Part shown: one piece after another, positions 8,214 to 62,292 of the stretch
Position numbering within the stretch: position 1 is the stretch's first letter
Layout: each line of letters begins with the position of its first letter
DNA from: a virus
Taxonomy: Duplodnaviria; Heunggongvirae; Uroviricota; Caudoviricetes
Strand: one strand, 5' to 3'
DNA length: 64,000 bases
IMG/VR virus record: IMGVR_UViG_3300047667_001391
The notes under the pieces: model-generated
Database searches by the model: none
What the model was told of the DNA's origin: nothing
Seen by the model: only the letters and a program-made list of their open reading frames with translations
Translations under genes and position numbers: made by a program

Positions 8214-8253
8214 TTTACTTTTACATTCAATCAGGTATCATATGCCTACTGAA
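8214..8253 (+). promoter_or_regulatory. sigma70-like promoter TTTACT-16-TATCAT followed by the conserved ACTGAA start region
   Basis: -35/-10 spacing plus ACTGAA 6 nt after the -10, as in the promoter family below. Confidence 0.4.
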
Positions 8254-8270
8254 ATTAAAGGGGTATTATT

Positions 8271-8474
8271 ATGATTACACTTGACCAATTACTTGAACTA
8301 AAAGAATCAGAATCTTGGGTGCCTGCTTGTGGTGGTACCGAAAAACAGTTTATTATTAAGGGTAGGACGGTGCAGTATATGTGGAATACATTTACTAAAG
8401 AACATACTTATTATGATGTTCTTCGTGATGTGTTTTTGGAAAATGACGACCTTAAAGAACTAGGTCTTTTGTAA
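8271..8474 (+). CDS. hypothetical protein
   Basis: 67-aa ORF with a GGGG SD. Confidence 0.5.
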   Translation: MITLDQLLELKESESWVPACGGTEKQFIIKGRTVQYMWNTFTKEHTYYDVLRDVFLENDDLKELGLL

Positions 8475-8489
8475 TTTTTAGGAGAGTAA

Positions 8490-9497
8490 ATGAGTAAATT
8501 ATTAGATCGAATGAAAAAGCTATCTACTGTAGTAGGTTCAAGTGCGTTATCTAAATCAGAATTTTTTAAATATGATGTAACTCCAACAGCCATTCCGATA
8601 TTAAATTTAGCGTTTGGTGGTTCGGTTTTTAGTGGGTTAACGGGCGGCATAACTATGTTGGCTGGTGAGTCAAGAACATTCAAAACTGGCTTATTAATTC
8701 AAATGGTTAAAGCATTTCAAGTTAAACATAAAACTGGTGTTTGTGTATTTTATGATAGTGAGTTTAGTTCTCTGGATTACTGGATTAGTGCAGGTATTGA
8801 TATGGACCGAATACTTCATACTCCAGTAGTTACTATTGATGAATTGAAACATGACATGGCCAAGTTATTGGATAGTATTGAGCCAGAAGATAAAATTATG
8901 TTTGTTTGTGATAGTATTGGTGGGCTTGCTTCCAAAAAAGAAGCCATGGATGCAGTCGAACGTGCTGACATGCCAGTTGATATGACCCGCGCCAAGACTA
9001 TGAATTCTTTGTTTCGTGTGGTTACTCCTGTATTAAATAAATTAAAAATAGATTTTGTACTGATCAACTCATTTTATGAAACAATGGATAAATACCCAAC
9101 CAGAGTTTATGCTGGTGGTAAGAAAGTGTTCCTATCCTGTGATGATGTTTTCTTTATTAGTCGCAGTAAGATTACACAAAAGGACACAAAAAAACTCGAT
9201 GGTTTTACATTTACTCTAAATGCAGATAAATCTCGTACCGTTATAGAGGGTAGTAAGTTTCCGATTGCAGTTACATTTCAAGGCGGCATTGATCGTTATT
9301 CTGGCCTATATGAATTAGCCAAAGAAGCTGGATTTATAGAAGTGTCCGGTGCTTGGGTTAAGTTAATGGACTTTGACACAAAGGTTATGGGTGGTAATGT
9401 GAGGGTTAAGGATATTAAGTCTGAATTTTATGAGGCATTAATAACTAACGATAAATTTACTGAGTTTGCATCAAAGAAATACAAACTAAATGGGTAA
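8490..9497 (+). CDS. uvsX: UvsX/RecA-family recombinase
   Basis: Co-linear with T4 UvsX: MSKLL..., a P-loop GESRTFKTG, VCVFYDSEFS, CDSIGGLASKKE, TRAKTMNSLFRVVTP and SRTV-EGSKF. Confidence 0.9.
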   Translation: MSKLLDRMKKLSTVVGSSALSKSEFFKYDVTPTAIPILNLAFGGSVFSGLTGGITMLAGESRTFKTGLLIQMVKAFQVKHKTGVCVFYDSEFSSLDYWISAGIDMDRILHTPVVTIDELKHDMAKLLDSIEPEDKIMFVCDSIGGLASKKEAMDAVERADMPVDMTRAKTMNSLFRVVTPVLNKLKIDFVLINSFYETMDKYPTRVYAGGKKVFLSCDDVFFISRSKITQKDTKKLDGFTFTLNADKSRTVIEGSKFPIAVTFQGGIDRYSGLYELAKEAGFIEVSGAWVKLMDFDTKVMGGNVRVKDIKSEFYEALITNDKFTEFASKKYKLNG

Positions 9498-10931
9498 TTG
9501 ATGAGTAGTGGAATAGCAGATGGGGAAATGGGGTCGATTGTACTCAATAATATAATTAACAACATTACATATGCCTCAAAAGTTTTACCGTACCTCAGTG
9601 CTGATTATTTTGTCGAGGAGACTGAGTGTTGTATTGCTCAAGTCTTGATCGACTATCACGCATTATATGGTAAGAGTCCAAACGTTAGAGAAATTGTGGT
9701 CGAACTTAAGGAATTACCACAGATAACCAAATTAGATAAAAATACAGTAAATGATGTACTCGGTAATGGTGCGTACATAGTAACTGATAATGAATGGTTA
9801 ACTAAGCACACCGAAAAATTTATACAACGCAGAAGGATAAGCCAAGCCTTCGAGAAAACATATGGTGATTTCGAAGCGGGTAATATTTTAGATTCGATAG
9901 CAAATGTATTCCAAGAAGCGTTATCATTTTCTTTTGATAATTCTATTGGTCATAACTTTATATTAGACAGTCATCTGCGATACGATTTATATTGTAGCGA
10001 AGAAGAAAGACTTAGCTTCTATCTTGAAATGTTAGATTTGGTCACAGATGGTGGTGTAGGTAAAGGTACATTGAATGTATTTCTTGCTGGTACTGGTGTA
10101 GGTAAATCTTTGCTGATGTGCTCTATTGCCGCAGCTCAAGCTATGGCAGGTAAAAAAGTACTCTATATATCATTAGAGATGGCGGAGCTGAAATTAGCAG
10201 AAAGATTAGAGTCTAATCTAATGGACGTACCATTAAACTCCTTGAAACATATGTCAAAAGAAGATTTTACTCTTCGTCAAAATATATACATAAAGAAAAT
10301 GGAAAGTTTGGGTGGGAATATAATATTCAAACAATATCCAACGAGTTCTGCCCACGCTGGTCATTTTAGAAATTTACTTATTGAATGTAAAAATAAATTA
10401 GATTTAGAATTTGATGTTATTTATATCGACTATCTAAATATTTGTGCAACTAATCGCGGTACTAACAGTGATAATTCTTACACTAAAGTTAAGAATATTG
10501 CAGAAGAAGTTAGGGCATTAGCTGTTGAATTTCAGGTACCTATTATTTCCGCAACACAAACAAATCGAAGTGGTCAGGAATCAAGCGATCTTAGTTTTGA
10601 GGATGTATCTGAATCACATGGCTTATCTGCTACTGTTGATTTATTATTTGGTCTAATGTCAAATGAAGAATGGGAGAAAACTAATAAAATAATGGTTGGT
10701 CAAATAAAAAATCGATACGGTGACCCTAACTATTATAAGAAGTTCATGATTGGTGTAGAGCGTAGTAAAATGCGTCTATATGATTTAAAACGGGAAGCAT
10801 CTAATGAAGTCAATTCTGGGCAATCGAGCAAAACAAATAGCACAGAAGGTGCGGATTTTGGTGCAATCGATTTGACAGTGCTTGGTGCATCTAGAGCTAA
10901 TTCATTAAACTTTGATAAATTAAAAACATGA
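9498..10931 (+). CDS. replicative DNA helicase, T4 gp41 / DnaB family
   Basis: GTLNVFLAGTGVGKS Walker A and YISLEMAE. The overall order matches T4 gp41, including the C-terminal IKNRYGD. Confidence 0.9.
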   Translation: MMSSGIADGEMGSIVLNNIINNITYASKVLPYLSADYFVEETECCIAQVLIDYHALYGKSPNVREIVVELKELPQITKLDKNTVNDVLGNGAYIVTDNEWLTKHTEKFIQRRRISQAFEKTYGDFEAGNILDSIANVFQEALSFSFDNSIGHNFILDSHLRYDLYCSEEERLSFYLEMLDLVTDGGVGKGTLNVFLAGTGVGKSLLMCSIAAAQAMAGKKVLYISLEMAELKLAERLESNLMDVPLNSLKHMSKEDFTLRQNIYIKKMESLGGNIIFKQYPTSSAHAGHFRNLLIECKNKLDLEFDVIYIDYLNICATNRGTNSDNSYTKVKNIAEEVRALAVEFQVPIISATQTNRSGQESSDLSFEDVSESHGLSATVDLLFGLMSNEEWEKTNKIMVGQIKNRYGDPNYYKKFMIGVERSKMRLYDLKREASNEVNSGQSSKTNSTEGADFGAIDLTVLGASRANSLNFDKLKT

Positions 10932-11191
10932 GAAATATGAGAAAAATTAAAATATATACTGCTGTTTGGTGCCCGTCATGTGTGATTTTACATGAATGGG
11001 TATCTAAAAAAATATTAGAAGGTCTGTCTATTGATGTTGAATTTGTTGATGTTGATGTAGAATTTCAAGAATTGATAGACCAAGAAATTAAAATAAAAAC
11101 CCTACCATCATCATTATATAATGGTCTATTGTATACTGGGAGTGATAAAATCAAGGAAATTATATTGAAAGCTGAAGTTAAAAATGATTGA
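10928..11191 (+). CDS. glutaredoxin/NrdH-like redoxin
   Basis: N-terminal beta-strand followed by a CPSC (CxxC) active site. The gene is immediately upstream of, and overlapping, nrdA. Confidence 0.6.
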   Translation: MRNMRKIKIYTAVWCPSCVILHEWVSKKILEGLSIDVEFVDVDVEFQELIDQEIKIKTLPSSLYNGLLYTGSDKIKEIILKAEVKND

Positions 11192-13058: not shown

Positions 13059-13063
13059 AAAAT

Positions 13064-14071: not shown

Positions 14072-14107
14072 TATACTTACATGATTATCTATGTATAATG
14101 TATACAT

Positions 14108-14131
14108 CGACTAGGAAATATCTCCTAGTCG
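14108..14131 (+). promoter_or_regulatory. 9-bp perfect hairpin (cgactagga aatatc tcctagtcg) in the nrdB-downstream intergenic region
   Basis: Read from the sequence. No T-run follows, so this is more likely an operator or RNA-stability element than a terminator. Confidence 0.4.
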
Positions 14132-14143
14132 AATTAACCAAAG

Positions 14144-16568: not shown

Positions 16569-16597
16569 TTTACATTGTATTAATTAATAAGTATATT
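16569..16597 (+). promoter_or_regulatory. sigma70-like promoter TTTACA-17-TATATT
   Basis: Consensus -35 with a 17-nt spacer. A leader hairpin (16603-16630) follows, ahead of the GAGGAG SD. Confidence 0.55.
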
Positions 16598-16648
16598 ACA
16601 CCGATGGCTTGCTAATACCAGTAAGCCATCAATAACGAGGAGAATCTG

Positions 16649-21020: not shown

Positions 21021-21048
21021 TTTACTTTTCAAATAACGTATGTATAAT
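21021..21048 (+). promoter_or_regulatory. sigma70-like promoter TTTACT-16-TATAAT
   Basis: Consensus boxes read from the sequence. A leader hairpin (21056-21083) follows. Confidence 0.55.
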
Positions 21049-21101
21049 ATTTGTTGTTGAGTTAGAAATAAATCTTACTCAACTAACAGAAGGAAAGTAA
21101 A

Positions 21102-23188: not shown

Positions 23189-23670
23189 TGAATATTGGTT
23201 CTGGTTCTGGTTACCCAGAGAGTGCGTTATCTAATTTTGCTCCACATGCATTTGTGTTTGATGGTGTTGATTGCGCTAGCATGGAAGGTCTATTGCAGTC
23301 ATTTAAATTTAAAAATGAAATGATGCAGGCACACGTTTGTACCTTGGTGGGAAAGAAAGCTAAGTTTAAAGGTAAACCAAAAAAATGGTATAAGACGCAA
23401 ACTCTCTGGTGGAAAGGTTTGGAACTAAAAAGAAACAGTCAGGAATATCAGGGCTTATTAGATGCCGCATTTACTGCCTTGGCCACCAACACTAAATTTA
23501 TTAAGGCATTGACGGCTACAAATAATGCAGTACTAAAACATTCTATTGGTAAATCTGATATTAGTCGTACAATATTAACCACCTCAGAATTTTGTAGCCG
23601 ACTTACTAAAATTAGAGATGGAATAGAAATAAAACAAAATGAAGATTTTTGGTCGTTGTTTAATACTTAG
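23188..23670 (+). CDS. NADAR (YbiA-like) domain protein; candidate ADP-ribosyl / N-glycoside hydrolase
   Basis: SALSNFAPHAFVFDGVDCASMEGLLQSFKF matches the YbiA/NADAR core (SNF..W.I.VDG..W.TSEHYFQAQKF). The ATG at 23188 overlaps the upstream stop (TAATG). Confidence 0.65.
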   Translation: MNIGSGSGYPESALSNFAPHAFVFDGVDCASMEGLLQSFKFKNEMMQAHVCTLVGKKAKFKGKPKKWYKTQTLWWKGLELKRNSQEYQGLLDAAFTALATNTKFIKALTATNNAVLKHSIGKSDISRTILTTSEFCSRLTKIRDGIEIKQNEDFWSLFNT

Positions 23671-23672
23671 TG

Positions 23673-23714
23673 TTGACACCATGATTTAGATTTAGTAAGA
23701 TATCGGTACTGAAG
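23673..23714 (+). promoter_or_regulatory. sigma70-like promoter TTGACA-17-TAAGAT plus the conserved leader start ACTGAAG
   Basis: Near-identical to the promoter at 24204 (gttgacRccatgatttagatttagtaagatatcSgtactgaag). Confidence 0.65.
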
Positions 23715-23732
23715 TAAACAACCGAGAATATT

Positions 23733-24155
23733 ATGACTAAAGTATTTGAAAATCAAGTCTGCGGTAGATGTGGTGGTACTGGACATTATTCTTATAATCA
23801 GGTTGACGGATCAACATGTTTTAAATGTCGCGGCTCTAAGACAAGGTTGACGCCTCGTGGCCTTGCTTCTCAAAATTATTATAACGACCTTATAACCATT
23901 CCAATTGGCGATGTCAAAATTGGCGATAAAATTATACCTATGACATTTGAAAGGGCGGGTGTAGTTACTGAAGTATCTGTTGATTCAAGTGGAGTGTTAT
24001 TTATAACAGTCAATAATTGTTCTTATGGGATGTCTAACACCTCAACAGTTAAAGTCGTTGTCGTGGGAGATGAAAGGCAGAAAAATATCGATTTGGCTTT
24101 ACTCTTTCAATCCAAACTTACCAAAGCGGGTAAATTAATGAAAAAACACCAATAA
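23733..24155 (+). CDS. hypothetical protein with an N-terminal zinc ribbon (CGRCGG ... CFKCRGS)
   Basis: 140-aa ORF downstream of promoter 23673. Confidence 0.5.
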   Translation: MTKVFENQVCGRCGGTGHYSYNQVDGSTCFKCRGSKTRLTPRGLASQNYYNDLITIPIGDVKIGDKIIPMTFERAGVVTEVSVDSSGVLFITVNNCSYGMSNTSTVKVVVVGDERQKNIDLALLFQSKLTKAGKLMKKHQ

Positions 24156-24203
24156 ATTAACTGGGGTTTTTTTTGGGCGGGGGTCATTGTTTGATAATTA
24201 GCG

Positions 24204-24245
24204 TTGACGCCATGATTTAGATTTAGTAAGATATCCGTACTGAAG
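24204..24245 (+). promoter_or_regulatory. sigma70-like promoter TTGACG-17-TAAGAT plus the ACTGAAG leader
   Basis: A duplicate of the 23673 promoter. Confidence 0.65.
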
Positions 24246-24265
24246 CAGACAACAGAGACAAAATA

Positions 24266-24445
24266 ATGAAAATATTAAATAAAAACATCGCTGGAATAGA
24301 ATGTATCTTAACGTGCTCAAAAACAGCAACTAAGTTAATTTCAAAAAAACACATCACAACACGTTGGAATATAAAAGAAGTTGGTGACAGTGTCGGTATT
24401 TCATTGCTTGGTGCGGAAGCAGTTCGAAGATACATATCTGCTTAA
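24266..24445 (+). CDS. small hypothetical protein (59 aa)
   Basis: ORF just below the track cut-off. Its ATG sits exactly where the conserved leader predicts (..aaaataATG), downstream of promoter 24204. Confidence 0.4.
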   Translation: MKILNKNIAGIECILTCSKTATKLISKKHITTRWNIKEVGDSVGISLLGAEAVRRYISA

Positions 24446-24702: not shown

Positions 24703-24744
24703 TTTACATACGAATTTAGATGTACTATTATATCGCCACTGAAG
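24703..24744 (+). promoter_or_regulatory. sigma70-like promoter TTTACA-17-TATTAT plus the ACTGAAG leader
   Basis: Consensus boxes. The ORF start is therefore moved to the ATG at 24766. Confidence 0.6.
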
Positions 24745-24765
24745 CAAAACAAACGAGTAAATAAA

Positions 24766-26550: not shown

Positions 26551-26577
26551 AAAACCCCACTAATGTGGGGTTTTTAT
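26551..26577 (+). terminator. rho-independent terminator (aaaaccccac taat gtggggtttt)
   Basis: GC stem plus T-run. Confidence 0.75.
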
Positions 26578-26609
26578 TGCACGTCATAAACTATTACTGA
26601 AAATAGGGG

Positions 26610-26650
26610 TTGACGCCATGCGTTAAATTTAGTAATATAACCCCACTGAA
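26610..26650 (+). promoter_or_regulatory. sigma70-like promoter TTGACG-17-TAATAT plus the ACTGAA leader
   Basis: Same architecture as the 23673 and 24204 promoters. Confidence 0.6.
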
Positions 26651-26674
26651 TAAATTTACCGAATCGAGAATATT

Positions 26675-26845
26675 ATGGCCAACCAGACACTAGACTTAGG
26701 CAACAATGAACAATTATCTAGCGGTGTGTTTCCTAACAGTGATGGTACTTTTACTGCATTAACCTTTACTAAAAGCAAAGATTTTAAAACTCAAGGTGGG
26801 GCGAACCGCTGGTACAGCAAAAACACCGGAGAGCAGGTCTTATGA
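26675..26845 (+). CDS. small hypothetical protein (56 aa)
   Basis: ATG at the conserved-leader position (..gagaatattATG). It overlaps the next gene's ATG (TATGA). Confidence 0.4.
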   Translation: MANQTLDLGNNEQLSSGVFPNSDGTFTALTFTKSKDFKTQGGANRWYSKNTGEQVL

Positions 26846-29263: not shown

Positions 29264-29345
29264 TAAAATACAACGAAATTGCTTTACAATATGCTTGGGT
29301 TGGGTATAATTACCTAACTCAAGCATAACATCTTAGGAATTCTAA

Positions 29346-52071: not shown

Positions 52072-52099
52072 TTTACTTCTTAGTTCAGTAGTGTAATAT
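52072..52099 (+). promoter_or_regulatory. sigma70-like promoter TTTACT-16-TAATAT driving the 8-gene paralog array
   Basis: Consensus boxes, followed by an unusually GC-rich ~50-nt leader. Confidence 0.55.
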
Positions 52100-52148
52100 G
52101 CACCTGAGCTAAGGGGGTTGTCCCGAAGCAGGCTTACGGAATCACATC

Positions 52149-52358
52149 ATGTTAAATGAAAAAATGAAATCGGTTATAGCTGCCTTACGTAATGGTAAAT
52201 ATAATCAATCTAAGGTTAGCCTGCAAGATTCTGATATGCAGTGCTATTTAGGTGTTTTATGTGACGAAAAGGAAACTGGGCATAAAAGTAGACGTAACTC
52301 ATCCCCAGAAATCGCTGTCGTTGATAACACAAACACAGAAGGATTACTTATATGTTAA
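52149..52358 (+). CDS. paralog-array member 1 (truncated, central segment deleted)
   Basis: Shares an N-terminus (M.NE.MK.V.AALR.GKY.Q) and a C-terminal EGLLI with the array family. Confidence 0.5.
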   Translation: MLNEKMKSVIAALRNGKYNQSKVSLQDSDMQCYLGVLCDEKETGHKSRRNSSPEIAVVDNTNTEGLLIC

Positions 52359-52699
52359 ACGAAAATATGAAATCGGTTATAGTTGCCCTACGTAGTGGTA
52401 AATACAAGCAGACCGTAGGTGCTTTACAAAATAGCTGTGGTCATTGCATACTTGGTGTAATTTGTGAGGTGTACGAAACAGACACTGGGGAAAGTCCAAA
52501 ACGTGATTTGCGTGGTCGATTAATAGGTGAAGATTTATCTAGCCATATGGATGTACAGGAGTGGGTGGGTTTAGTGGACGGTGACGGTGATTGCGGCATT
52601 AGTAGACCATCACTAATGACTATGAACGATATACACAAAAATACATTCTCGGAAATCGCTGATTTTATTGAGTCTAATCCAGAAGGATTATTAGTATGA
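52352..52699 (+). CDS. paralog-array member 2
   Basis: Conserved N-terminus MxNxNMKxVxVALRSGxYxQT..LQ.S.GHCxLGVxCEVYE, then WVGL and a C-terminal F.EIADFIE..PEGLLV. Confidence 0.65.
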   Translation: MLNENMKSVIVALRSGKYKQTVGALQNSCGHCILGVICEVYETDTGESPKRDLRGRLIGEDLSSHMDVQEWVGLVDGDGDCGISRPSLMTMNDIHKNTFSEIADFIESNPEGLLV

Positions 52700-53040
52700 T
52701 AAACAAAAATATGAAAAAAGTGTTGGTTGCCTTACGCTCCGGTGAATTTACACAAACTGTAGCAAAATTACAAGATAGTTCTGGCCACTGTTGTTTAGGT
52801 GTGATGTGCGAAGTTTATGAGAAAGAAACTGGTGATGAACTTCCGCGTGACCAATCAGATTTTTTAGTGGGCAATAATCTTAACGACCATCAAAATGCAT
52901 TACTTTGGCTGGGGCTAAGCAGCCCTCAAGGGCATAATGAGGTTGGTAGCAGCCTTATTTGCAGAAATGATTTTAATAGAAATACATTCTTAGAAATTGC
53001 TGATTTCATCGAATCTGAACCAAAAGGATTATTAGTATGA
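52696..53040 (+). CDS. paralog-array member 3
   Basis: Same family. ATGA overlap with its neighbours. Confidence 0.65.
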   Translation: MINKNMKKVLVALRSGEFTQTVAKLQDSSGHCCLGVMCEVYEKETGDELPRDQSDFLVGNNLNDHQNALLWLGLSSPQGHNEVGSSLICRNDFNRNTFLEIADFIESEPKGLLV

Positions 53041-53411
53041 TAAACAAAAATATGAAAAAAGTGTTGGTTGCCTTACGCTCTGGTGAATTCACCCAAGCCG
53101 AAGGTATGCTACAATGTTCTGGTGGCCACTGTTGTTTAGGTGTGATGTGCGAGGTTTATGAGAAAGAAACTGGTGATGAACTTCCACATAATAGCATGGG
53201 GTTTTTGGTAGGTGGGGATCTTGATGGGCAGTTTTTTGGTAAAGTAAAGAGTTGGGTGGGACTAAAAAGTTACTCTGGAAAATTTGTTGGTTCATCGGGT
53301 AATCCCAATACTCCCAATAATTCACTAGTGGATATGAATGACACATTAAATAAGTCATTCGATGATATTGCTGATTTCATCGAAACTGAACCAGAAGGAT
53401 TATTAGTATGA
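53037..53411 (+). CDS. paralog-array member 4
   Basis: Same family. ATGA overlap. Confidence 0.65.
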   Translation: MINKNMKKVLVALRSGEFTQAEGMLQCSGGHCCLGVMCEVYEKETGDELPHNSMGFLVGGDLDGQFFGKVKSWVGLKSYSGKFVGSSGNPNTPNNSLVDMNDTLNKSFDDIADFIETEPEGLLV

Positions 53412-53761
53412 TAAACGAAAATATGAAGAAAGTTTTAGTTGCCTTACGTTCCGGTGAATATCAGCAAACTAAATGTAAATTACAAGATAGTTATGGTCAC
53501 TGTTGTTTAGGTGTGATGTGTGATGTTTACGAAAAAGAAACTGGTGTCAAACTTCGACGAGATACTGATAATTATATAAATGGATACAGTCTTGTCTTTA
53601 TACAAGAAGTGCAGCAGTGGGTTGGATTAACTGATACACATGGTACATTTATGTCACCAAGTAAACCATACTCACTAGCGACGATGAACGATCTTGAGGA
53701 TAAAACATTCCTAGAAATTGCTGATTTCATCGAAACTGAGCCAGAAGGATTATTAGTATGA
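53408..53761 (+). CDS. paralog-array member 5
   Basis: Same family. ATGA overlap. Confidence 0.65.
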   Translation: MINENMKKVLVALRSGEYQQTKCKLQDSYGHCCLGVMCDVYEKETGVKLRRDTDNYINGYSLVFIQEVQQWVGLTDTHGTFMSPSKPYSLATMNDLEDKTFLEIADFIETEPEGLLV

Positions 53762-54093
53762 TAAACGAAAATATGAAAAAGGTTTTAGTTGCCTTACGTA
53801 GTGGTGAATATAAACAAACTCAATATAGATTACAAGATTCTGGTGGCCACTGTTGCTTAGGTGTGATGTGCGAAGTTTATGAGAAAGAAACTGGTGTCAA
53901 ACTTCCGCGAGATGGTGTATCAGGTTTTATAGTAGGTTCTAATCTTAATAAATTTCCGTTAGTAAAGAGCTGGGTGGGATTACACGAAGACATCGTAGCT
54001 GATGTTAATGCGAATATCGATTTACTGGTGGGTATGAATGACACATTTAATAATTCATTCGATGAAATCGCTGACTTCATCGAAACTGAATAA
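53758..54093 (+). CDS. paralog-array member 6 (C-terminus shortened by a small indel)
   Basis: Same family. Ends ...FIETE. Confidence 0.6.
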   Translation: MINENMKKVLVALRSGEYKQTQYRLQDSGGHCCLGVMCEVYEKETGVKLPRDGVSGFIVGSNLNKFPLVKSWVGLHEDIVADVNANIDLLVGMNDTFNNSFDEIADFIETE

Positions 54094-54104
54094 AAAGGAT
54101 TATT

Positions 54105-54458
54105 ATGATAAACGAAAATATGAAGAAAGTTTTAGTTGCCTTACGTTCCGGTGAATTCACACAAACAACATCAACCTTACAAGATAGTTGTGGTCACTGT
54201 TGTTTAGGTGTGATGTGTGAAGTTTACGAAAAGGAAACTGGTGTCAAACTTCCGCGAGATATATCAGGTTTTATAGTAGGTTCTAATCTTAGTGGTTTTC
54301 CTCTAGTAAAGAGCTGGGTGGGATTAAATAAAGACAACGATGCGGGTCATGCAGATGGCAGTATATATTCACTAGTGGATATGAACGATAGGCTCAATAA
54401 TACTTTCTTAGAAATTGCTGATCATATCGAGTCTCAACCAAAAGGATTATTAGTATGA
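54105..54458 (+). CDS. paralog-array member 7
   Basis: Same family. Confidence 0.65.
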   Translation: MINENMKKVLVALRSGEFTQTTSTLQDSCGHCCLGVMCEVYEKETGVKLPRDISGFIVGSNLSGFPLVKSWVGLNKDNDAGHADGSIYSLVDMNDRLNNTFLEIADHIESQPKGLLV

Positions 54459-54799
54459 TAAACGAAAATATGAAGAAAGTTTTAGTTGCCTTACGCTCCG
54501 GTGAATATAAACAAACTCAAGAATCGTTACAAGATAAATCTGGTCACTGTTGTTTAGGTGTGATGTGTGAAGTTTACGAAAAAGAAACTGGGGATACTAT
54601 CCCCCGTAGTAGTAGTGGACTTATTATCGGTGGTGATCTTGGTGTAAGACGCCAAAAAGTAAGACGCTGGGTGGGACTAAAACATCATAACGGTTCGTGC
54701 TTGGTTGGCAAATCACTAATTTCTATGAATGACGCAAATAAGTCATTCATAGAAATTGCTGATCATATCGAGTCTCAACCAGAAGGGTTATTAGTATAA
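54455..54799 (+). CDS. paralog-array member 8
   Basis: Same family. ATGA overlap. Confidence 0.65.
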   Translation: MINENMKKVLVALRSGEYKQTQESLQDKSGHCCLGVMCEVYEKETGDTIPRSSSGLIIGGDLGVRRQKVRRWVGLKHHNGSCLVGKSLISMNDANKSFIEIADHIESQPEGLLV

Positions 54800-54814: not shown

Positions 54815-54842
54815 TTTATATTATAAAATAGTCTGGTACACT
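54815..54842 (+). promoter_or_regulatory. putative promoter TTTATA-16-TACACT with a TACCTT leader (weak -35)
   Basis: Homologous in layout to the promoters at 57351, 59056 and 62252. Confidence 0.4.
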
Positions 54843-54881
54843 TACCTTTCTCAAATAAACAACTAACAGCAGGAAAACACA

Positions 54882-56888
54882 ATGGATTTCATGACACTGA
54901 AGATGGCAATAAACAATAAGTTTGACGAACTTCAAAAGGGCAACTTATATATTTCCAATGCAACTAAAGAAGAATTATGGGACACGTACATATCTTCGTT
55001 TCGCCCAGAAGATAACCCAATGTTTCGTGAGCGAACCGAACATGATTGTAATTGCTGCAAGTCTTTTATTCGCACTGCTGGCGGTATGTTGTCCATCGTT
55101 AATAATAAGATTGTGTCTATTTGGGATGTCGTAGATGTACCAGAGGGCTATCAAATCGTCGCCGATGCTATGTCTGCATTAGTTAAAAGTAGGGGCATAG
55201 ATACTGAATTTCTTCACTATGAAAATACTGTTGGTACGGACCATAACCACGACACAGAAACTGATGTTGTGTGGAATCATTTTTATTTAAAATTACCATC
55301 TAGATTTGTTAATAAAGACTCAGGTGCAGTAACTGGTCTAACCCGTGACCGATACAATATGGCACGTCGTTCATTAGCTGGGATCACGATGGAATCTATT
55401 AATATTGTGATTGAGTTAGTTAAAAATAAAGAAATTTATCGCGGCGAAGAGCACTTAGATTCCATTAATAAATTCGCCGGAACGAAAAATGCTTTCGAGA
55501 GTATTAGTGAGCAAAATGTCGAAGCTAGAACAGCATTTCTCTGGGAAGCCAGTAAAAGAATTGGTGCAGCATCTGGTTTTCGAACTACAGTAATTGGTAC
55601 GTTGTTATCTGATATTAGTGAAGGGGTTGAATTATATAAAGCTGTAAAGTCTTTTGAGAGTAAAGTAGCACCAAGTAATTACAAGCGACCAACTCAGATT
55701 TTATCTAAGGCTGCCATCGAAAAAGCTGAAGCTAAAATGATTGAGTTGCTTATCACAGATGCATCACTTGAACGCAGAATGTCAAGAGCTGAAGACATTA
55801 CTATAAATAATGTGTTATTTGCAGACCGCTCCGCTCAAGAAAAAATGGGTATTTTTCATATGCTACAATCTGAGGTTAAGGTTAAGGTGCCGTCATATAA
55901 AAAGGACATGGAAATGTCAATTGATGAGTTCATAAACGACGTGTTACCAAACGTATCGACGGTTGAAATGGCCATGGATAACACACATGTCGGTAATTTA
56001 ATGACCTTAGTCTCGCCAATATACGAAGAAGCTGAATCAATCCTCAAGTGGGGCAATAATTTTAGTTGGTCATATAATGGTGAAGTTACTGACTCAATCA
56101 AAGAGCGCGTAAAAGCTGCTGGCGGTAATGTAACTGGCGATGTACGAGTCTCATTGAGTTGGCACAACGCTGATGACTTAGATTTGCATGCCAAAACACC
56201 TAATGGGCGAAGAATTAATTTTAGTAATCGAACTGATGGGCGTGGCGGTGAGTTAGATGTCGATATGAACGCTAATGGTAGACATGACAGAATAAATCCA
56301 GTAGAAAACATTACGTGGCCAGATGAGTCACGGATGCATAATGGTTTATATGAAGTTAATGTTCATAATTACACGAAGCGTCAAAATGATAATATCGGGT
56401 TTGAGGTTGAGTTAGAGCATAAAGGTATAATCCATAAATTCGTTTATGATAAGGCAGTGAAGGACGGAGAATCTATTGAAGTGGTTCAGTTTGATTTTAA
56501 TACACGAAATGGTATTAGTATAATTAAGTCATTGCCATCAGTTAATTCTCAAAGACAAGTTTGGGGTGTCTCCACCAATAAATTCCAAAAGGTGAGTATG
56601 ATTATGAATTCACCAAACCATTGGGATGGTGAAGCTACCGGAAACAAGCATGTGTTCTTTATGTTAGAAGGGTGTGTTAATCCAGAACCAGTGCGCGGAT
56701 TTTATAACGAATTCCTACGCGATGATTTACACAGTGAACGCAAAGTGTTTGAAGTACTGGCTGGTAAAATGAAACCGGAACCATCAGTTAATCAGTTATC
56801 TGGTTTAGGGTTCTCAAGTACGCAGCGCAATAGTGTATTATGTAAAGTTACAGGCGAAATCAATCGCACAATTAAAATTAAGTTCTGA
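54882..56888 (+). CDS. large hypothetical protein (668 aa) with a possible TerD-like beta-sandwich region
   Basis: VRVSLSWHNADDLDLHAKTPNGRRINFSN...GGELDVDMN resembles the TerD signature (GLGWD...DLDaSa...fyn). An N-terminal HDCNCCKSF Cys cluster is present. Confidence 0.55.
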   Translation: MDFMTLKMAINNKFDELQKGNLYISNATKEELWDTYISSFRPEDNPMFRERTEHDCNCCKSFIRTAGGMLSIVNNKIVSIWDVVDVPEGYQIVADAMSALVKSRGIDTEFLHYENTVGTDHNHDTETDVVWNHFYLKLPSRFVNKDSGAVTGLTRDRYNMARRSLAGITMESINIVIELVKNKEIYRGEEHLDSINKFAGTKNAFESISEQNVEARTAFLWEASKRIGAASGFRTTVIGTLLSDISEGVELYKAVKSFESKVAPSNYKRPTQILSKAAIEKAEAKMIELLITDASLERRMSRAEDITINNVLFADRSAQEKMGIFHMLQSEVKVKVPSYKKDMEMSIDEFINDVLPNVSTVEMAMDNTHVGNLMTLVSPIYEEAESILKWGNNFSWSYNGEVTDSIKERVKAAGGNVTGDVRVSLSWHNADDLDLHAKTPNGRRINFSNRTDGRGGELDVDMNANGRHDRINPVENITWPDESRMHNGLYEVNVHNYTKRQNDNIGFEVELEHKGIIHKFVYDKAVKDGESIEVVQFDFNTRNGISIIKSLPSVNSQRQVWGVSTNKFQKVSMIMNSPNHWDGEATGNKHVFFMLEGCVNPEPVRGFYNEFLRDDLHSERKVFEVLAGKMKPEPSVNQLSGLGFSSTQRNSVLCKVTGEINRTIKIKF

Positions 56889-56898: not shown

Positions 56899-57291
56899 AT
56901 GAATAAAATAGAAAAGGCAACACGAATTAAATTACGTTTCGACACAGCTCGTGGCTTACTTCCAGTAGAAGATTTATTTTCTCTGCCATTAGATAAAGGT
57001 GCGGTATCGCTAGATTCCTTACATTCTAAGATAAAGCAAAGAATAAAATCATCTACTGAAGATAGTTATCTCAAAACACGTTCGAAAGAACAAGATATTG
57101 ATGAATTACGGATAGAAATATTAGAAGATATTATGGATGAGCGCATAGCTGAAGCTAATGCTAAAGTTCAGCAGATTGCAAAAGCTCAACGTCGTAGTTA
57201 TCTAGAATCACTTATCGCAGAAAAGGATGTTGCTGCAGATAAGAATATGACCAAAAAGCAATTATTGGCTGAATTGGACAAAATAACCTAG
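56899..57291 (+). CDS. hypothetical protein
   Basis: The ATG at 56899 has a GAGGAG SD and overlaps the upstream stop. The track's upstream start is less likely. Confidence 0.5.
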   Translation: MNKIEKATRIKLRFDTARGLLPVEDLFSLPLDKGAVSLDSLHSKIKQRIKSSTEDSYLKTRSKEQDIDELRIEILEDIMDERIAEANAKVQQIAKAQRRSYLESLIAEKDVAADKNMTKKQLLAELDKIT

Positions 57292-57312
57292 ATATAAAAT
57301 CTAAATAGACCA

Positions 57313-57340
57313 AAAACCTCGCTAATGTGGGGTTTTTTTG
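57313..57340 (+). terminator. rho-independent terminator (aaaaccucgc uaau guggggu + U7, with G-U wobbles)
   Basis: Hairpin plus T-run. Same architecture as the terminators at 26551 and 59016. Confidence 0.6.
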
Positions 57341-57350
57341 TTTTAGTCTC

Positions 57351-57391
57351 TTTACATATCACATCAGTTAGGTATACTTACCCCACTGAAG
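57351..57391 (+). promoter_or_regulatory. sigma70-like promoter TTTACA-16-TATACT plus the conserved leader TACCCCACTGAAG
   Basis: Member of the conserved promoter/leader family. Confidence 0.6.
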
Positions 57392-57415
57392 AAATACAAC
57401 CAAGAGATTAAAACA

Positions 57416-58210: not shown

Positions 58211-58224
58211 GGATTAGAATAAAA

Positions 58225-59019
58225 ATGAATAATAAAATGAAGAAAGAAATAGAAGCTGGCGATATAGTCGTCGTTATTATGACCAACACACAACTGAAGG
58301 GAATTGGGTTAGATTTCACAACTAATATGGGGCAAGAATTCAAAGTCTTAGCTATATCAGCTGATAAGCAAAAATTACAGATTTATTGGGGCTGGATTAC
58401 AATTAAAGCATTTCGGTTAGTGAACCCAAACAAGTGGTCAATCTTTAATAATAAAATTAAATGGTGTGAGTTGGATGATGACCAGAAAAAGAGCTTGCTG
58501 CTTGCTGGGTATAATGGGCATAAATTTAAGTTAGATAATTCTAATCATAATTTATTTTTTACACCAAAATTTGATAGCCCAGAAGCAGTATATACTGTGG
58601 TTATTACAGATTCAGATAAAATATATAATGTAATTAAGCCAGATAAGGATTTATTAAAAGAACAAAGAGATGCTAATCATATATTATTAAGTGATATAGA
58701 ACACTATAAATCTGTGTGTGCGTCCAAGGACAAAGACATTAACACCCTTTATAATAAACTTTTAGCTGAAGAGAAGGAGAACTTAAAATTAAGAAAAACA
58801 GCCCAACCAAAACACTTAATATCTAAAGGTAAAAACAATAGCCATGCTGACAGTACAGCGCGAGACCTGATTAATCGTAATTCGGAACTGGAGCGGGTAC
58901 TTAAGCTTGTGCATTATGATTTACTTCTTCGCGCAGAGGAGGACTCAGATGGCGTTAAGGTGGTAGATGTGGGTTCATCGGTATGGGCTTCATTAAAGGG
59001 TGCCATTGGTCTAGCTTAA
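58225..59019 (+). CDS. hypothetical protein (C-terminal coiled coil)
   Basis: 264-aa ORF. Confidence 0.55.
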   Translation: MNNKMKKEIEAGDIVVVIMTNTQLKGIGLDFTTNMGQEFKVLAISADKQKLQIYWGWITIKAFRLVNPNKWSIFNNKIKWCELDDDQKKSLLLAGYNGHKFKLDNSNHNLFFTPKFDSPEAVYTVVITDSDKIYNVIKPDKDLLKEQRDANHILLSDIEHYKSVCASKDKDINTLYNKLLAEEKENLKLRKTAQPKHLISKGKNNSHADSTARDLINRNSELERVLKLVHYDLLLRAEEDSDGVKVVDVGSSVWASLKGAIGLA

Positions 59020-59040
59020 TTATTAAAAAACCCACCTATG
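59016..59040 (+). terminator. rho-independent terminator (aaaaacccac ctat gtgggtttttt)
   Basis: Hairpin plus T-run. Confidence 0.75.
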
Positions 59041-59055
59041 TGGGTTTTTTAATGC

Positions 59056-59096
59056 TTTACAATCCAATTTAGATAGGTATACTTACCTCACTAAAG
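59056..59096 (+). promoter_or_regulatory. sigma70-like promoter TTTACA-16-TATACT plus the leader TACCTCACTAAAG
   Basis: Near-identical to the 57351 promoter. Confidence 0.6.
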
Positions 59097-59120
59097 AAAA
59101 TCAACCAAGAGATTAAGCAA

Positions 59121-59471
59121 ATGGACAATAAAACAGTCGAATCTACCCTAAGTCATTCTATGCAGGCATGTGAATTACCAGAAAATGTATTTGTTTATAA
59201 CGCAGAAGAAGTAGAAGCGTTACTCGAAGAAAAAGATAATCTAATTGCAGCACAGCAACAAAATATTGTTGAGTTAGAAAAACAAATCGCTTATTATGTT
59301 ACTAACTCTGGGATAAATCGTGGAGTTATTCTTGATTTAAAAACAGAAAATAATATTTTACAAAATGAAGCAAAAACAAGACAGGAACAGTACGAGGAAG
59401 TGAGGAAGGCTGCACTTGTATGGAGAGGTGCGGCGGCTATAGCGGATAGGGATGGATGCCCGCACGTCTAA
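59121..59471 (+). CDS. hypothetical coiled-coil protein
   Basis: 116-aa ORF at the conserved leader position. Confidence 0.5.
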   Translation: MDNKTVESTLSHSMQACELPENVFVYNAEEVEALLEEKDNLIAAQQQNIVELEKQIAYYVTNSGINRGVILDLKTENNILQNEAKTRQEQYEEVRKAALVWRGAAAIADRDGCPHV

Positions 59472-59563
59472 TGAAATGAAATCCGAAATAGTGTTGACTA
59501 TACGCGACTGCACTGGTATTATCGGTAATACAGTCACAAAACAAAGCAGAAGGCGAAACACCC

Positions 59564-59773
59564 ATGGTCATATCATTAAAGATATTTCTCGCTCAAGTCA
59601 ACCTAAGTAAGAACTTTGTTACCTTAACAGAGGGTGTAAATAACGGGTTCATAATTTATCGAATTAAAAATCGAGAATTAGAATTAAATGCTCAAGTTGA
59701 CACCAAAGAATTTGAGTGGGTGTCACAAGAAGTAGCTGCCGATGGTACATTATCATATACTGGCAGTAAGTAA
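59564..59773 (+). CDS. hypothetical protein
   Basis: 69-aa ORF. Confidence 0.4.
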   Translation: MVISLKIFLAQVNLSKNFVTLTEGVNNGFIIYRIKNRELELNAQVDTKEFEWVSQEVAADGTLSYTGSK

Positions 59774-59798
59774 TTTTTAATAACTGGAGATAATAGTA

Positions 59799-60671
59799 AT
59801 GTTTAACGATATTAGGGTAATATTAAATAATAATGTGGGTATGAGTGTTATAGTCAGTCAGTTTAATGATGGGTCGGTTAATGTATGCCTACCACCTGAT
59901 GTACGCTGTCCGATTAGTGTGGGTTCGATTGTAGTGCGTGCTAAATTGACAAGTTCTGTTAGTTTAGTTGCATTGTTACTGACGGTTGATGCGTGTCGTC
60001 GGAAATTCCCAGATTTACAATTCATCTCTTTGGTTGCTCATTATATGCCATACGCAAGACAAGACCGTGTGTGTAATATGGGTGAGTCACTTTCGTCGAA
60101 AGTTATGGCTGGCCTTATTAATGGTTGTGGTTTTAGTAGTGTGACTATCGCAGACCCACACAGTGATGTGATGGTGGCGTTGATAGATAATTGTAAAGTT
60201 ATTAGTGCAGAAAGTATCATTGCTTCTAATGAAGTTCTATCTAATAGAATTATGGGTGGATTTTATACACTAGTTGCGCCGGATGCTGGCTCAAGAAAGA
60301 AAGTAGAAAAAATCGCAACACGTTTTGGACTCGATGGATTTGTGCAGGGGTCAAAACATAGAAACTTAAAGACTGGGGAATTGTCAGAAATAACATTTAG
60401 TGGTGATGTCCAAGATAAACATTGCCTTATCATAGATGATATATGCGATGGTGGTGGGACATTCGTTGGTCTAGCAGAAATAATGAAGGAAGCTGGGGCA
60501 CTTAGTGTAGATTTGTATGTGACACACGGGTTCTTTTCTCGTGGCACCGATACAGTAAATGGCGAAAATAAGGCAATAAACCAAATATTCACAACAGACT
60601 CAATTAGCAGAGACCAAGGCACACGTAAGTCTCTTAATATAATCGAAATAGGAAATAATAATTATGAGTAA
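59799..60671 (+). CDS. ribose-phosphate pyrophosphokinase (Prs)-family enzyme; candidate ADP-ribose pyrophosphokinase (Adps-like)
   Basis: FNDGSVNV, the YMPYARQDR flexible-loop region and a PRPP-binding CLIIDDICDGGGT motif, all co-linear with bacterial Prs. Confidence 0.8.
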   Translation: MFNDIRVILNNNVGMSVIVSQFNDGSVNVCLPPDVRCPISVGSIVVRAKLTSSVSLVALLLTVDACRRKFPDLQFISLVAHYMPYARQDRVCNMGESLSSKVMAGLINGCGFSSVTIADPHSDVMVALIDNCKVISAESIIASNEVLSNRIMGGFYTLVAPDAGSRKKVEKIATRFGLDGFVQGSKHRNLKTGELSEITFSGDVQDKHCLIIDDICDGGGTFVGLAEIMKEAGALSVDLYVTHGFFSRGTDTVNGENKAINQIFTTDSISRDQGTRKSLNIIEIGNNNYE

Positions 60672-62241
60672 CGTCGTACCAGCAACATTAGCAAAAGATG
60701 CATACAAGGCATTTCACCCATTAGCATATCACCCTGATGTCTCAGAAGTTTATGCAAATTACATAAATCGCTCTGGTCGTTTAAGTAATATACCAACTAA
60801 GATAAATCTTGGTGGTGTAGTTAATATTGGCGCACAAAGATTCTGTATGGATTTCTTAATTGGCGAGTTTAATGATACTTTCTTCAACCTAGATGAAGAT
60901 GTGGCCATTGAGCAGCATGCTCGTGTATTTAGAGCTATGTTAGGGCGAGCATTTAGCGACGAAAGACTACGTAAACTACATAAGTTGGGTTATCTTCCTC
61001 TTCGCCTTAAAACACTACCAGAAGGCACAATAACTCCGTATGGTGTTGCTAACATTACTGTGCGATCAACCAAATCTGATTTTCAGTGGTTAACAAACTC
61101 AATTGAAACTGTATTGAGCTGTGAAGTTTCTGGTATATCTACTTCATGCACCACAGCCACTGCATACCTAAAAACTTTTATTAAATATGCTCGACTCACT
61201 GGATTAGATGAAGAATTCTGTCAATTTCAGGGGCATGATTTTTCAATGCGCGGTATGATTTTTGGTCGACATGGCGCATACCTTTCTGGTTTAGGGCATC
61301 TTGCATCTGGCTTAGTTGGTACCGATACCATGGGTTCAGTTTTATTAGCCGAGAAATTCTATGGCGCAAACCTAGAAACTGAGTTAGTTGGTGTATCAGT
61401 TGATGCAACAGAACATAGTGTAACTTGTTCTTGGATCGAAGAAGGCGAAGAAGAGTTCTGTAAATATTTAATGAGTAAAGCTTCACCTTCCGGTATTCTT
61501 TCGGTAGTTGCTGACACTTGGGACTTTGAGAATTTTGTGTGCAATATTGTACCTAAATTAAAAGAAGCAATTATGGCACGTGATGGGTCGTTTATAATCC
61601 GCCCCGACTCTGGTTGTCCGGTCAAGGTATTAACTGGTTATACTAGCGAAGAAGTGAGCATGGATTATCGCGGTAAATTCTACCCACTTGATGATGATGG
61701 CGAAGTAGATTATTATTCTAAAGCCCTAACACAATTTGAAATTGATGGCCTCATTGAAACATTATGGAATCAATTTGGTGGCACACTAACTGATAAAGGT
61801 TATAAGCTTTTAGATGAGCATATTGGTGCAATTTATGGGGACTCAATTACATTAGAACGTCAAGAGCTAATCTTACAGCGTTTAATGGATAAGGGGTTCG
61901 CTTCTAAGGTTGTCCTTGGTATTGGTAGTTACACGTATCAACACGTGACACGCGACACACATGGCTCTGCAGTAAAAGCTACTAGTATGATTAAAGATGG
62001 CCGTCGCGTTGCTATATTTAAAGACCCTAAAGGTGATAGCAGTAAGAAATCCGCGAAAGGTTTGTTGTATGTTGGTCGCGATGAGAATGGTGTAATACAC
62101 CAATTTGATGATGTATCTGAGGAACACGAAAGAGAAGGTTTATTGGAAACTATATTTTTGGATGGTAAAATGGTTAAAACCACTACACTAAAAGAAATTC
62201 GTGCTCTAATTATGTCACAGCTCCAAACTCAACTTAAATAA
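60664..62241 (+). CDS. nicotinamide phosphoribosyltransferase (NAMPT/NadV)-family enzyme; candidate Namat-like
   Basis: DAYKAFHPLAYHPDVSEVYANY, GHDFSMRG, IIRPDSGCP and GIGSY are co-linear with the NAMPT motifs DSYK, GYRG, RPDSG and GSGGG. It overlaps the Prs-like gene by 8 nt. Confidence 0.8.
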   Translation: MSNVVPATLAKDAYKAFHPLAYHPDVSEVYANYINRSGRLSNIPTKINLGGVVNIGAQRFCMDFLIGEFNDTFFNLDEDVAIEQHARVFRAMLGRAFSDERLRKLHKLGYLPLRLKTLPEGTITPYGVANITVRSTKSDFQWLTNSIETVLSCEVSGISTSCTTATAYLKTFIKYARLTGLDEEFCQFQGHDFSMRGMIFGRHGAYLSGLGHLASGLVGTDTMGSVLLAEKFYGANLETELVGVSVDATEHSVTCSWIEEGEEEFCKYLMSKASPSGILSVVADTWDFENFVCNIVPKLKEAIMARDGSFIIRPDSGCPVKVLTGYTSEEVSMDYRGKFYPLDDDGEVDYYSKALTQFEIDGLIETLWNQFGGTLTDKGYKLLDEHIGAIYGDSITLERQELILQRLMDKGFASKVVLGIGSYTYQHVTRDTHGSAVKATSMIKDGRRVAIFKDPKGDSSKKSAKGLLYVGRDENGVIHQFDDVSEEHEREGLLETIFLDGKMVKTTTLKEIRALIMSQLQTQLK

Positions 62242-62251
62242 TAAATAAGGC

Positions 62252-62292
62252 TTTACATTTTGTTTCAGTTAGGTACAATTACCTTTCTGAAA
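62252..62292 (+). promoter_or_regulatory. sigma70-like promoter TTTACA-16-TACAAT plus the leader TACCTTTCTGAAA
   Basis: Member of the conserved promoter/leader family. Confidence 0.55.

Follow-up and report, generated by a model that had tools for sequence, protein, structure and literature searches.

Early promoters of bacteriophage T5 carry a class-specific discriminator motif, and the phage protein gp026 has been suggested to act via that region (PMC7472727). Annotated early promoters of T5 (NC_005859) read, for example, TATAAT-aagttc-ATAAATT-aatGAGAGAGG...ATG and TATAAT-atatac-ATAAATT-agttaaGAGAGG...ATG. Repeated promoter elements of another kind, called PeSL cassettes, have been described in the T4-type phages RB49 and phi1. 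They are units of about 100 bp that include an upstream stop codon, an AT-rich stretch, a -35 and a -10 hexamer, a Shine-Dalgarno (SD) sequence and a start codon; copies of them precede orphan genes, and by recombination at these sites genes are gained, lost and replaced (PMC2839356). Here we describe a family of ten promoter cassettes in a stretch of 64,000 nucleotides (nt) from a virus of the class Caudoviricetes (IMG/VR record IMGVR_UViG_3300047667_001391), which we call the window. Each cassette combines sigma-70-type hexamers with a heptamer box, ACTGAAG or a variant of it, at the predicted transcription start.

The promoter family is real and statistically solid. We consider it probable that its members are early or middle promoter cassettes of the host RNA polymerase with its primary sigma factor, that the box focuses the start of transcription, that the leader is generic and unstructured, and that the cassettes are kept alike by recombination together with selection. 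In a large lytic phage such a family is to be expected; it is of a known kind and should not surprise a specialist.

Anatomy and statistics of the promoter family

All nine promoters cited in a first-pass annotation of the window were found where it had placed them, and a tenth member, at 29283, was missing from its list. The cassettes are given below with a terminator that adjoins one of them and the gene that precedes the first. The latter encodes an RNA polymerase that matters for one of the competing explanations.

8214..8270, + strand: B-like cassette; TTTACT 8214-8219, 16-nt spacer, TATCAT 8236-8241, predicted +1 A 8248 (ACTGAAA), ATG 8271
23673..23732, + strand: cassette A1; TTGACA, 17-nt spacer, TAAGAT 23696-23701, atcggt, ACTGAAG (predicted +1 23708), leader TAAACAACCGAGAATATT, ATG 23733
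24204..24265, + strand: cassette A2; TTGACG, 17-nt spacer, TAAGAT 24227, ACTGAAG (predicted +1 24239), ATG 24266 of an open reading frame (ORF) of 59 amino acids (aa)
24703..24765, + strand: cassette A3; TTTACA, 17-nt spacer, TATTAT 24726, ACTGAAG (predicted +1 24738), ATG 24766
26610..26674, + strand: cassette A4; TTGACG, 17-nt spacer, TAATAT 26633, ACTGAAT (predicted +1 26645), ATG 26675; terminator 26553-26572 upstream
29283..29345, + strand: B cassette; TTTACA, 16-nt spacer, TATAAT 29305, taccta, ACTCAAG (predicted +1 29317), ATG 29346
54815..54881, + strand: B cassette; TTTATA, 16-nt spacer, TACACT 54837, tacctt, TCTCAAA (predicted +1 region 54849), ATG 54882
57351..57415, + strand: B cassette; TTTACA, 16-nt spacer, TATACT 57373, tacccc, ACTGAAG (predicted +1 57385), ATG 57416; terminator 57312-57337 upstream
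59056..59120, + strand: B cassette; TTTACA, 16-nt spacer, TATACT 59078, tacctc, ACTAAAG (predicted +1 59090), ATG 59121; terminator 59028-59047 upstream
62252..62317, + strand: B cassette; TTTACA, 16-nt spacer, TACAAT 62274, tacctt, TCTGAAA (predicted +1 region 62286), ATG 62318 of a 42-aa ORF
26553..26572, + strand: intrinsic terminator, AACCCCAC-TAAT-GTGGGGTT and a T run, conserved, directly upstream of a cassette; related copies at 57312-57337 and 59028-59047
5811-8210, + strand: gene of a T7-like single-subunit RNA polymerase, 799 aa (phrog_414, E=5e-164)

Aligned on the -10, all ten sites share one layout: TT[GT]A[CT]N, a spacer of 16-17 nt, TAnnnT, exactly 6 nt, and the heptamer. The -35-like hexamers are TTGACA, TTGACG, TTTACA, TTTACT and TTTATA. 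Every site thus has a -35 near TTGACA and a TAnnnT -10 at a distance usual for such promoters, which bears out the earlier description of the sites as sigma-70-type promoters. All ten are intergenic and lie on the coding strand in the direction of the downstream gene, 23-33 nt ahead of its ATG. The first cassette, 8214, begins 3 nt past the stop codon of the RNA polymerase gene.

The first-pass annotation had assigned ACTGAAG to every member. The offset of 6 nt after the -10 does hold in all ten, but the exact heptamer is found in four (23708, 24239, 24738, and 57385). Four other sites have one mismatch (8248 ACTGAAA, 26645 ACTGAAT, 29317 ACTCAAG, and 59090 ACTAAAG), and the remaining two have 2-3 mismatches (62286 TCTGAAA and 54849 TCTCAAA).

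The bare -35/-10 core has 64 matches on the + strand of the window, ten of which bear [AT]CT[GCA]AA[AGT] at offset 6; since this degenerate pattern was derived from the sites themselves, the corresponding P value is inflated and only indicative. The robust part of the statistics is the offset specificity and the strand asymmetry: each of the other offsets from 0 to 12 gives at most one heptamer match among the + strand cores, and none of the 48 cores on the - strand carries the heptamer at offset 6. The exact ACTGAAG occurs 19 times in the window versus 6.7 expected; the 15 copies outside the promoters are all inside coding sequence and have no promoter context.

The members fall into two types. 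Type A (23673, 24204, 24703, and 26610) is described by TTGAC., a 17-nt spacer and a TAAGAT-like -10, and type B (8214, 29283, 54815, 57351, 59056, and 62252) by cTTTACA, a 16-nt spacer and aggTATACT followed by TACCyy. Between the types one of the six discriminator positions is alike, versus all seven positions of ACTGAAG, whose offset is kept. Conservation beyond the polymerase hexamers and into the start-site region, as proposed before, is supported. The accompanying statement that three members (23673, 24204, and 26610) are nearly identical over about 45 nt is true for two of them, and over a longer stretch: 23651-23727 and 24182-24258 are 88% identical over 77 nt, but 26588-26664 reaches only 61%. 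Two B copies have 80% identity over 69 nt, and the repeat families D8, D9, and D15 span 50-77 nt of the cassettes. Upstream terminators adjoin three of the ten cassettes (26553, 57312, and 59028) and form a repeat family of their own (D19); the other cassettes have none.

The cassettes also help to place small genes. As was suggested, two small ORFs can plausibly be taken as genes: 24266-24445, with 59 aa, and 26675-26845, with 56 aa and a match to phrog_751 (E=7.6e-26). The 42-aa ORF 62318-62446, likewise proposed earlier, is in another frame than a longer listed ORF, and the same 42-aa gene is called in the relative L098. The longer listed ORF, 62337-62990 (+ strand), encodes a larger protein that, by its sequence, probably starts near 62454 (MKNFYIIG...).

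Predicted start site, leader, and the cassettes of relatives

We infer that the first transcribed nucleotide is the A of ACTGAAG, which follows the -10 by 7 nt. Escherichia coli RNA polymerase most often starts 7 bp downstream of the -10 and strongly prefers a purine at +1 and a pyrimidine at -1 (PMC5730371). In the family, position 7 is A in eight of ten sites and position 6 is a pyrimidine in nine, in agreement with this rule as a sequence prediction. In the resulting Y-A-C-T the A is the sole purine over positions 6-9; therefore the box should direct initiation to a single nucleotide. The next four bases, GAAG, would occupy +4 to +7, inside the initially transcribed sequence. On T5 N25-type promoters this sequence is a known modulator of promoter escape.

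Three other sigma-70-like promoters of the window (14076, 16569, and 21021, with -10s ending at 14099, 16597, and 21048) are followed by stable hairpins that begin at the predicted +1/+2; their free energies range from -10.8 to -16.7 kcal/mol, with z between -3.0 and -4.6. The position of these hairpins supports the start register used for the family. They belong to a second kind of promoter (14076-14140, 16569-16640, and 21021-21095, + strand), in which the hairpin is probably a 5' stabilising stem-loop. A 106.8-kb relative has a whole promoter family of this hairpin-at-+1 design (gcTTTACTtctcgtaaaataagagTATAAT then GGGGTTAACGGTTAACCCC), mostly straight after a conserved terminator.

The ten family leaders themselves are nearly free of structure (free energy 0 to -2.0) over the 23-33 nt from the predicted +1 to the ATG. 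A second conserved motif, AACAACC..GAGA, had been regarded as part of the family signature. It does not hold up as such, for AACC and GAGA are enriched before start codons throughout the genome. With at most one mismatch, ACAACCGAGA has 7 matches versus 2.1 expected, only 3 of them in family leaders. Within the region from -30 to -5, AACC is found in 17 of 89 genes (6.4 expected), and 13 of these 17 are outside the family; GAGA is found in 21 of 89 (6.0 expected) and AGGA in 35 of 89 (5.0 expected). The 3' half of the leader is the ordinary ribosome-binding context of this phage, i.e., an A/C-rich stretch and then an SD variant, and it seems conserved in the family because the leaders are so short. 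The suggestion that GAGA is a non-canonical SD was right insofar as it is an SD-like element of the family leaders; it is a genome-wide variant of the ribosome-binding site and not a mark of the family. AAC-rich leaders are also present in the relatives and in an unrelated marine phage. We found no evidence pointing to an RNase processing site, another of the earlier proposals.

Relatives with about 89% nucleotide identity (contigs L096-L100 and L066), which come from Tara Oceans and other marine samples, bear the same cassettes. The orthologue of 54815 in the Tara/ENA relatives has the -35 TTGACG instead of TTTATA and the heptamer TCTCAAG, while GGTACACTTACCT.TCTC (-10 to +4) is unchanged. 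A shift of the -35 next to a fixed region from -10 to +4 is what one expects from selection for a host-type -35. The 57351 cassette differs from those of the relatives by 2 substitutions in 65 nt, and in two orthologues the +7 base is shifted toward the consensus G.

A third type of cassette, C, is represented in the window by a degenerate copy.

52072..52148, + strand: C-type cassette, degenerate copy; TTTACT, 16-nt spacer, TAATAT, gcacct, GAGCTAAGGGGGTTGTCCC; ACT lost

In the relatives type C consists of cCTTTACT, a 16-nt spacer, TAATAT, ccaact or ctaatt, and ACTGAC or ACTGGC, then TAAGGGGTTGTCCC; their version of the 52072 cassette is TAATAT-ccaact-ACTGACTAAGGGGTTGTCCC. The leader differs from the family leader and contains a small hairpin, and ACTG stands exactly 6 nt past the -10. 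Because type C keeps ACTG at the predicted +1 before a different leader, the box appears to be tied to the promoter and not to an RNA operator; judging from these sequences, it travels with the promoter and not with the leader. The first-pass annotation had treated ACTGAAG...AACAACCGAGA as one RNA-level unit, and this idea has to be given up, since in C-type cassettes the two parts are separated.

The proteins encoded downstream of the ten cassettes have no similarity to one another, and a PHROG annotation of function is missing for most of them. When the window is compared with its relatives, synteny is broken inside cassettes at 57413, 59070, 59105, and 62298 and outside cassettes at 58214 and 62448; the enrichment of junctions in cassettes is evident by eye. 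A 120-aa gene of L098 is flanked by cassette sequence matching 59070-59105 of the window, and both L096 and L098 have a half-cassette at 59070, from the -10 onward with the -35 missing. L096 has no PRPP-synthetase and NAMPT genes, and the right junction of this deletion, 62298, is inside a leader. The missing segment, 59799-62241 (+ strand), comprises the PRPP-synthetase/NAMPT pair (NAD salvage) together with the downstream promoter and is an accessory module bounded by a cassette. Finally, the B cassette before a 264-aa gene of the window has as its counterpart a C cassette before the orthologous gene of L096; the junction is at 57413.

An unrelated phage (L104-L106) shares only the 140-aa gene 23733-24155 with the window, at 86% nucleotide identity. 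Upstream of this gene it has TATACA, a 16-nt spacer, TATACT, agcttt, and ATTGAAGCAAAACAACCGAGA. Start region (with ATTGAAG at the same offset) and leader are the same as in the window, whereas the -35 and the spacer before them have diverged. The 140-aa protein (+ strand) has CxxC motifs; it is 81% identical to its counterpart in an unrelated NinG-containing phage and 63% identical to that of a phage that looks temperate and has Cro and a VapE-like primase. The gene appears to be a widely exchanged accessory gene.

More distant relatives have wholly different sequences downstream of their promoters. Relatives whose polymerases are 47-55% identical to that of the window each have an extended sigma-70-like promoter family of their own, and in the 106.8-kb IMG/VR contig and in L004 members of such families lie upstream of the polymerase gene. 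Promoters in this position could be transcribed only by the host enzyme, unless the polymerase is delivered with the virion. A search of IMG/VR for the exact B-type pattern gave no match. The first-pass annotation had overlooked both the T7-like RNA polymerase gene and the behaviour of the family as recombining cassettes, while drawing attention to the family itself.

Probable host promoters and competing explanations

According to the explanation that we favour as the probable one, a cassette would be composed, in this order, of sometimes a terminator, an AT-rich stretch with an upstream stop codon, the -35, a spacer of 16-17 nt, the -10, a 6-nt discriminator, the start-site box, and a leader with the ribosome-binding site. 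The host holoenzyme would read these promoters and initiate at the A of the box. The leader would be an unstructured, A/C-rich 5' untranslated region of 23-33 nt with a GAG(A)/AGGA SD, offering a general translation-initiation context and no family-specific operator. The similarity between cassettes would have two sources: copying and exchange of cassettes by recombination before unrelated, mostly orphan genes, and selection on both promoter hexamers as well as on the start-site box.

Several observations weigh against this explanation. A generic sigma-70 scan, uninformative in AT-rich DNA like that of the window, found 75 sites versus 92 expected, i.e., no enrichment. Several sigma-70-like promoters of the window have no box, which is thus dispensable for promoter function. 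In the window the box is confined to promoters that follow the phage polymerase gene; the sigma-70-like promoters that precede this gene, 4119 and 5563 (two sites only), are without it. The start-site rules that we applied come from E. coli RNA polymerase and may not be those of the host, and two members (54849 and 62286) start with T, not A. Tuning of promoter escape by GAAG is a putative role. The conservation of the region from -10 to +7 in orthologues is only modestly above background (about 3 differences per 76 nt versus about 8 expected at 10-11% divergence).

There is a small but appreciable chance that the box is instead a tag of a temporal class, which a phage factor reads either as DNA, via the discriminator and start-site contacts of the host polymerase, or as the 5' end of the RNA, and that the tagged set is switched together. 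Persistence of the box over three cassette types with otherwise different parts speaks for such a tag, as does its presence in only about one in two sigma-70-like promoters of the window. A phage that owns a polymerase is also expected to hand over from host transcription. There is a precedent in T5, whose early promoters have a class-specific discriminator motif (ATATT) and whose gp026 binds RNA polymerase and weakens its contacts at -5 to +2 (PMC7472727). However, tblastn found no homologue of T5 gp026 (best E=2.7; most small proteins not searched) or of T4 RegA (best E=3.4) in the 64-kb window, the box has no dyad or repeat symmetry typical of operators, and intrinsic start-site rules suffice for it with no extra factor. 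It is unlikely that the ACTGA box is a dedicated cis-signal for a phage factor, with a regulon switched at the takeover by the T7-like polymerase, and that the cassettes move between unrelated marine phages; they come into consideration as inter-phage mobile units because the same start box and leader precede the same 140-aa gene in an unrelated phage. The opposite view, that the shared start-site and leader bases have no function and merely hitch-hike with the -35 and -10 in recently duplicated or exchanged cassettes, seems to us decidedly unlikely. The close similarity of A1 to A2, which includes the spacer, and of the two B copies is in its favour; so are the breakpoints and cassette swaps, signs of active recombination among relatives, and the entirely different downstream sequences in distant relatives. 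Yet types A and B have diverged in the discriminator and most of the spacer and kept an identical heptamer at a fixed offset, ACTG is retained in type C before a different leader, ATTGAAG is found at the same offset in the unrelated phage behind a different -35 and spacer, and the +7 base moves toward the consensus G in two orthologues.

The polymerase encoded in the window keeps the catalytic motifs and is apparently active, with a specificity loop unlike that of T7. The box could be the core of a promoter of this enzyme, with +1 at the G of ACTGAAG, overlapping a host promoter, and the host enzyme and then the phage enzyme would transcribe from it. The best-conserved stretch, from GGTA to AAG, has about 23 nt, the size of a T7-type promoter, and all boxes lie downstream of the polymerase gene, the first cassette beginning 3 nt after it as in T7; the absence of the box from 4119 and 5563, two sites only, also speaks for this reading. 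Moreover, CCTCACTAAAG at 59080-59090 resembles positions -9 to +1 of the phage T3 promoter. Nevertheless, we consider this explanation very improbable. The region from -12 to -7 relative to that G, on which specificity depends in T7-type promoters and which is nearly invariant within one such phage, varies (ATGCCT, ATCGGT, ATCCGT, ATCGCC, AACCCC, TACCTA, TACCTT, TACCCC, TACCTC, and TACCTT), and the putative +1 is G in six members, A in three, and T in one. The -35 is kept at the right spacing in all members and is nearer to the consensus in a relative. When aligned to T7 residues 735-775, the specificity loop has no equivalents of R746, N748, R756, and Q758. A search of the window found no copy of the box without sigma-70 elements outside coding sequence, and in relatives equivalent cassettes lie upstream of the polymerase gene. 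The four grounds on which we reject the resemblance to a T3/T7 promoter are thus the specificity region, the base at +1, the -35, and the specificity loop. Scarcely credible is a translational operator in the leader for a RegA- or gp32-like RNA-binding repressor, which the first-pass annotation had listed among its candidates. Similar short leaders are indeed common to several unrelated genes, as in a translational regulon. However, the family-specific box stands at a variable distance of 23-33 nt before the AUG and does not overlap the SD or AUG, the sequence next to the AUG is of a kind seen genome-wide, and in type C ACTG precedes a different leader; the RegA search gave the result stated above.

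The phage and its relation to known systems

The window has a G+C content of 35%, and from about 4.5 kb on nearly every gene is on the + strand. Its gene products include a PolA-type DNA polymerase, a DnaB-like helicase, ribonucleotide reductase, PhoH, an SbcC-like nuclease, a CCA-adding enzyme, NAMPT, and thymidylate synthase. Comparison of two window segments with 50,697 phage records by megablast revealed no close deposited phage at the DNA level, and the RNA polymerase has less than 30% identity to any deposited phage polymerase. An identical polymerase protein is encoded on an 87-kb JGI contig. The contig has at least 87 kb, of which the sequence examined represents 64 kb. The same phage is represented by Logan contigs that agree with the window in every base and end, in window coordinates, at about position 79 and at about 65.4 kb; a metagenome scan for the remainder of the 87-kb contig with a flanking protein gave no match. 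Polymerase homologues of 41-55% identity are found on contigs of up to about 100-115 kb. This set looks like an uncharacterised clade; the phage of the window, of at least 87 kb, has a T7-like polymerase along with genes of replication and nucleotide metabolism that look T5-like.

The high frequency of AGGA/GGAG SD sequences and the terminators made of a hairpin and a T run suggest, by general knowledge of such signals, a host with canonical sigma-70 promoters and SD-dependent translation. Scans of the window for tRNA genes and Rfam families were negative. The 106.8-kb relative was walked into its tail-fibre region, where the genes are tightly packed, with no sigma-70-like cassettes; the walk, which ended short of the start of the late operon, yielded no late promoter motif.

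Other features of the window are as follows.

3-112: 10-bp tandem repeat GTATGGTCCG, about 11 copies, inside which a Logan contig of the same phage ends
266-409: three 40-nt repeats that follow the tandem repeat
about 4230-4480, - strand: stretch of about 250 nt with 51% G+C in the 35% genome, between divergent gene blocks upstream of the polymerase; long palindromes (GACGTCCAGCTGGACGTC) and a terminator-like hairpin at its end
5057-5623, + strand: about 570 nt of non-coding DNA upstream of the polymerase operon; 17-mer TTATACGCGGGTTTGCG is repeated and then inverted, giving a 20-bp hairpin at 5088-5134
52149-54799, + strand: eight paralogous genes in tandem, each of about 115 aa, with a period of about 345 bp (DUF8296 in relatives)
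54882-56888, + strand: 668-aa DUF8224 protein (phrog_1735)

The repeats at 3-112 and 266-409 are candidates for a packaging region, an origin, or a genome end. The G+C-rich stretch at about 4230-4480 folds with -101 kcal/mol (z -4.4), far better than its shuffles; it has no Rfam match and no sequence homology to the GC-rich stretches at the same place in three relatives. The DUF8296 array has 4 copies in L096 and 5 in L097. The DUF8224 protein is about 49% identical to proteins of 135-150 kb phages of Klebsiella, Serratia, Acinetobacter, Escherichia, Salmonella, Proteus, and Raoultella (Mydo, KB57, and others). Some records of its homologues are labelled "DNA-directed RNA polymerase", for which we found no support.

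For this group of uncultured marine phages (contigs of about 87-115 kb), which combine T5-like replication genes with a T7-like RNA polymerase, the cassettes provide precise predicted transcription starts and gene starts. Should the box prove to focus initiation or to distinguish a temporal class, promoter design would gain a compact natural part, and the hand-over of transcription from the host polymerase to that of the phage could be approached through it.

Among the known systems, the A/C-rich unstructured stretches (AACAACC and AACCAA) just 5' of the SD of many genes in the window and in the relatives resemble ACA-motif translational enhancers. An ACA motif upstream of the SD enhances translation of enterobacterial mRNAs, with no strict spacing (PMC3879156). 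The likeness here is one of nucleotide sequence. Promoters of the T7 group (23 bp, -17 to +6) are comparable in that the first promoter follows directly after the polymerase gene; the cassettes differ from them by a variable specificity region, a conserved -35, a +1 that is not always G, and an unrelated specificity loop of the polymerase.

The family comes nearest to early promoters of T5 and to PeSL cassettes of T4-type phages. The likeness to PeSL cassettes is in the composition and behaviour of the elements. Here, too, a composite motif from the upstream stop codon through the start codon is repeated, near-identical cassettes precede unrelated genes, breakpoints lie inside cassettes, and the cassette type has been swapped before one gene. 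The idea of gene shuffling driven by conserved promoter cassettes is thereby extended past T4-like phages, for the phage of the window, with its T7-like polymerase and T5-like replication genes, is not T4-like. A further difference is that a stem-loop accompanies only three of the ten cassettes, upstream and as a separate terminator. We know of no fixed start-site box among the described features of PeSL cassettes.

Early promoters of T5 differ in the box itself, which is ATAAATT or ATATT there and ACTGAAG here, and in that their start sites were mapped, whereas those of the window are predicted. T5 has no T7-like RNA polymerase, unlike the phage of the window. PolA, the DnaB-like helicase, SbcCD, ribonucleotide reductase, PhoH, and thymidylate synthase of the window resemble the gene content of T5. 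The architecture of the promoters is alike in both phages: a host-type -35 and -10 are followed after 6 nt by a heptamer that the promoters share, and the leader, about 20-30 nt long, has an SD that contains GAGA.

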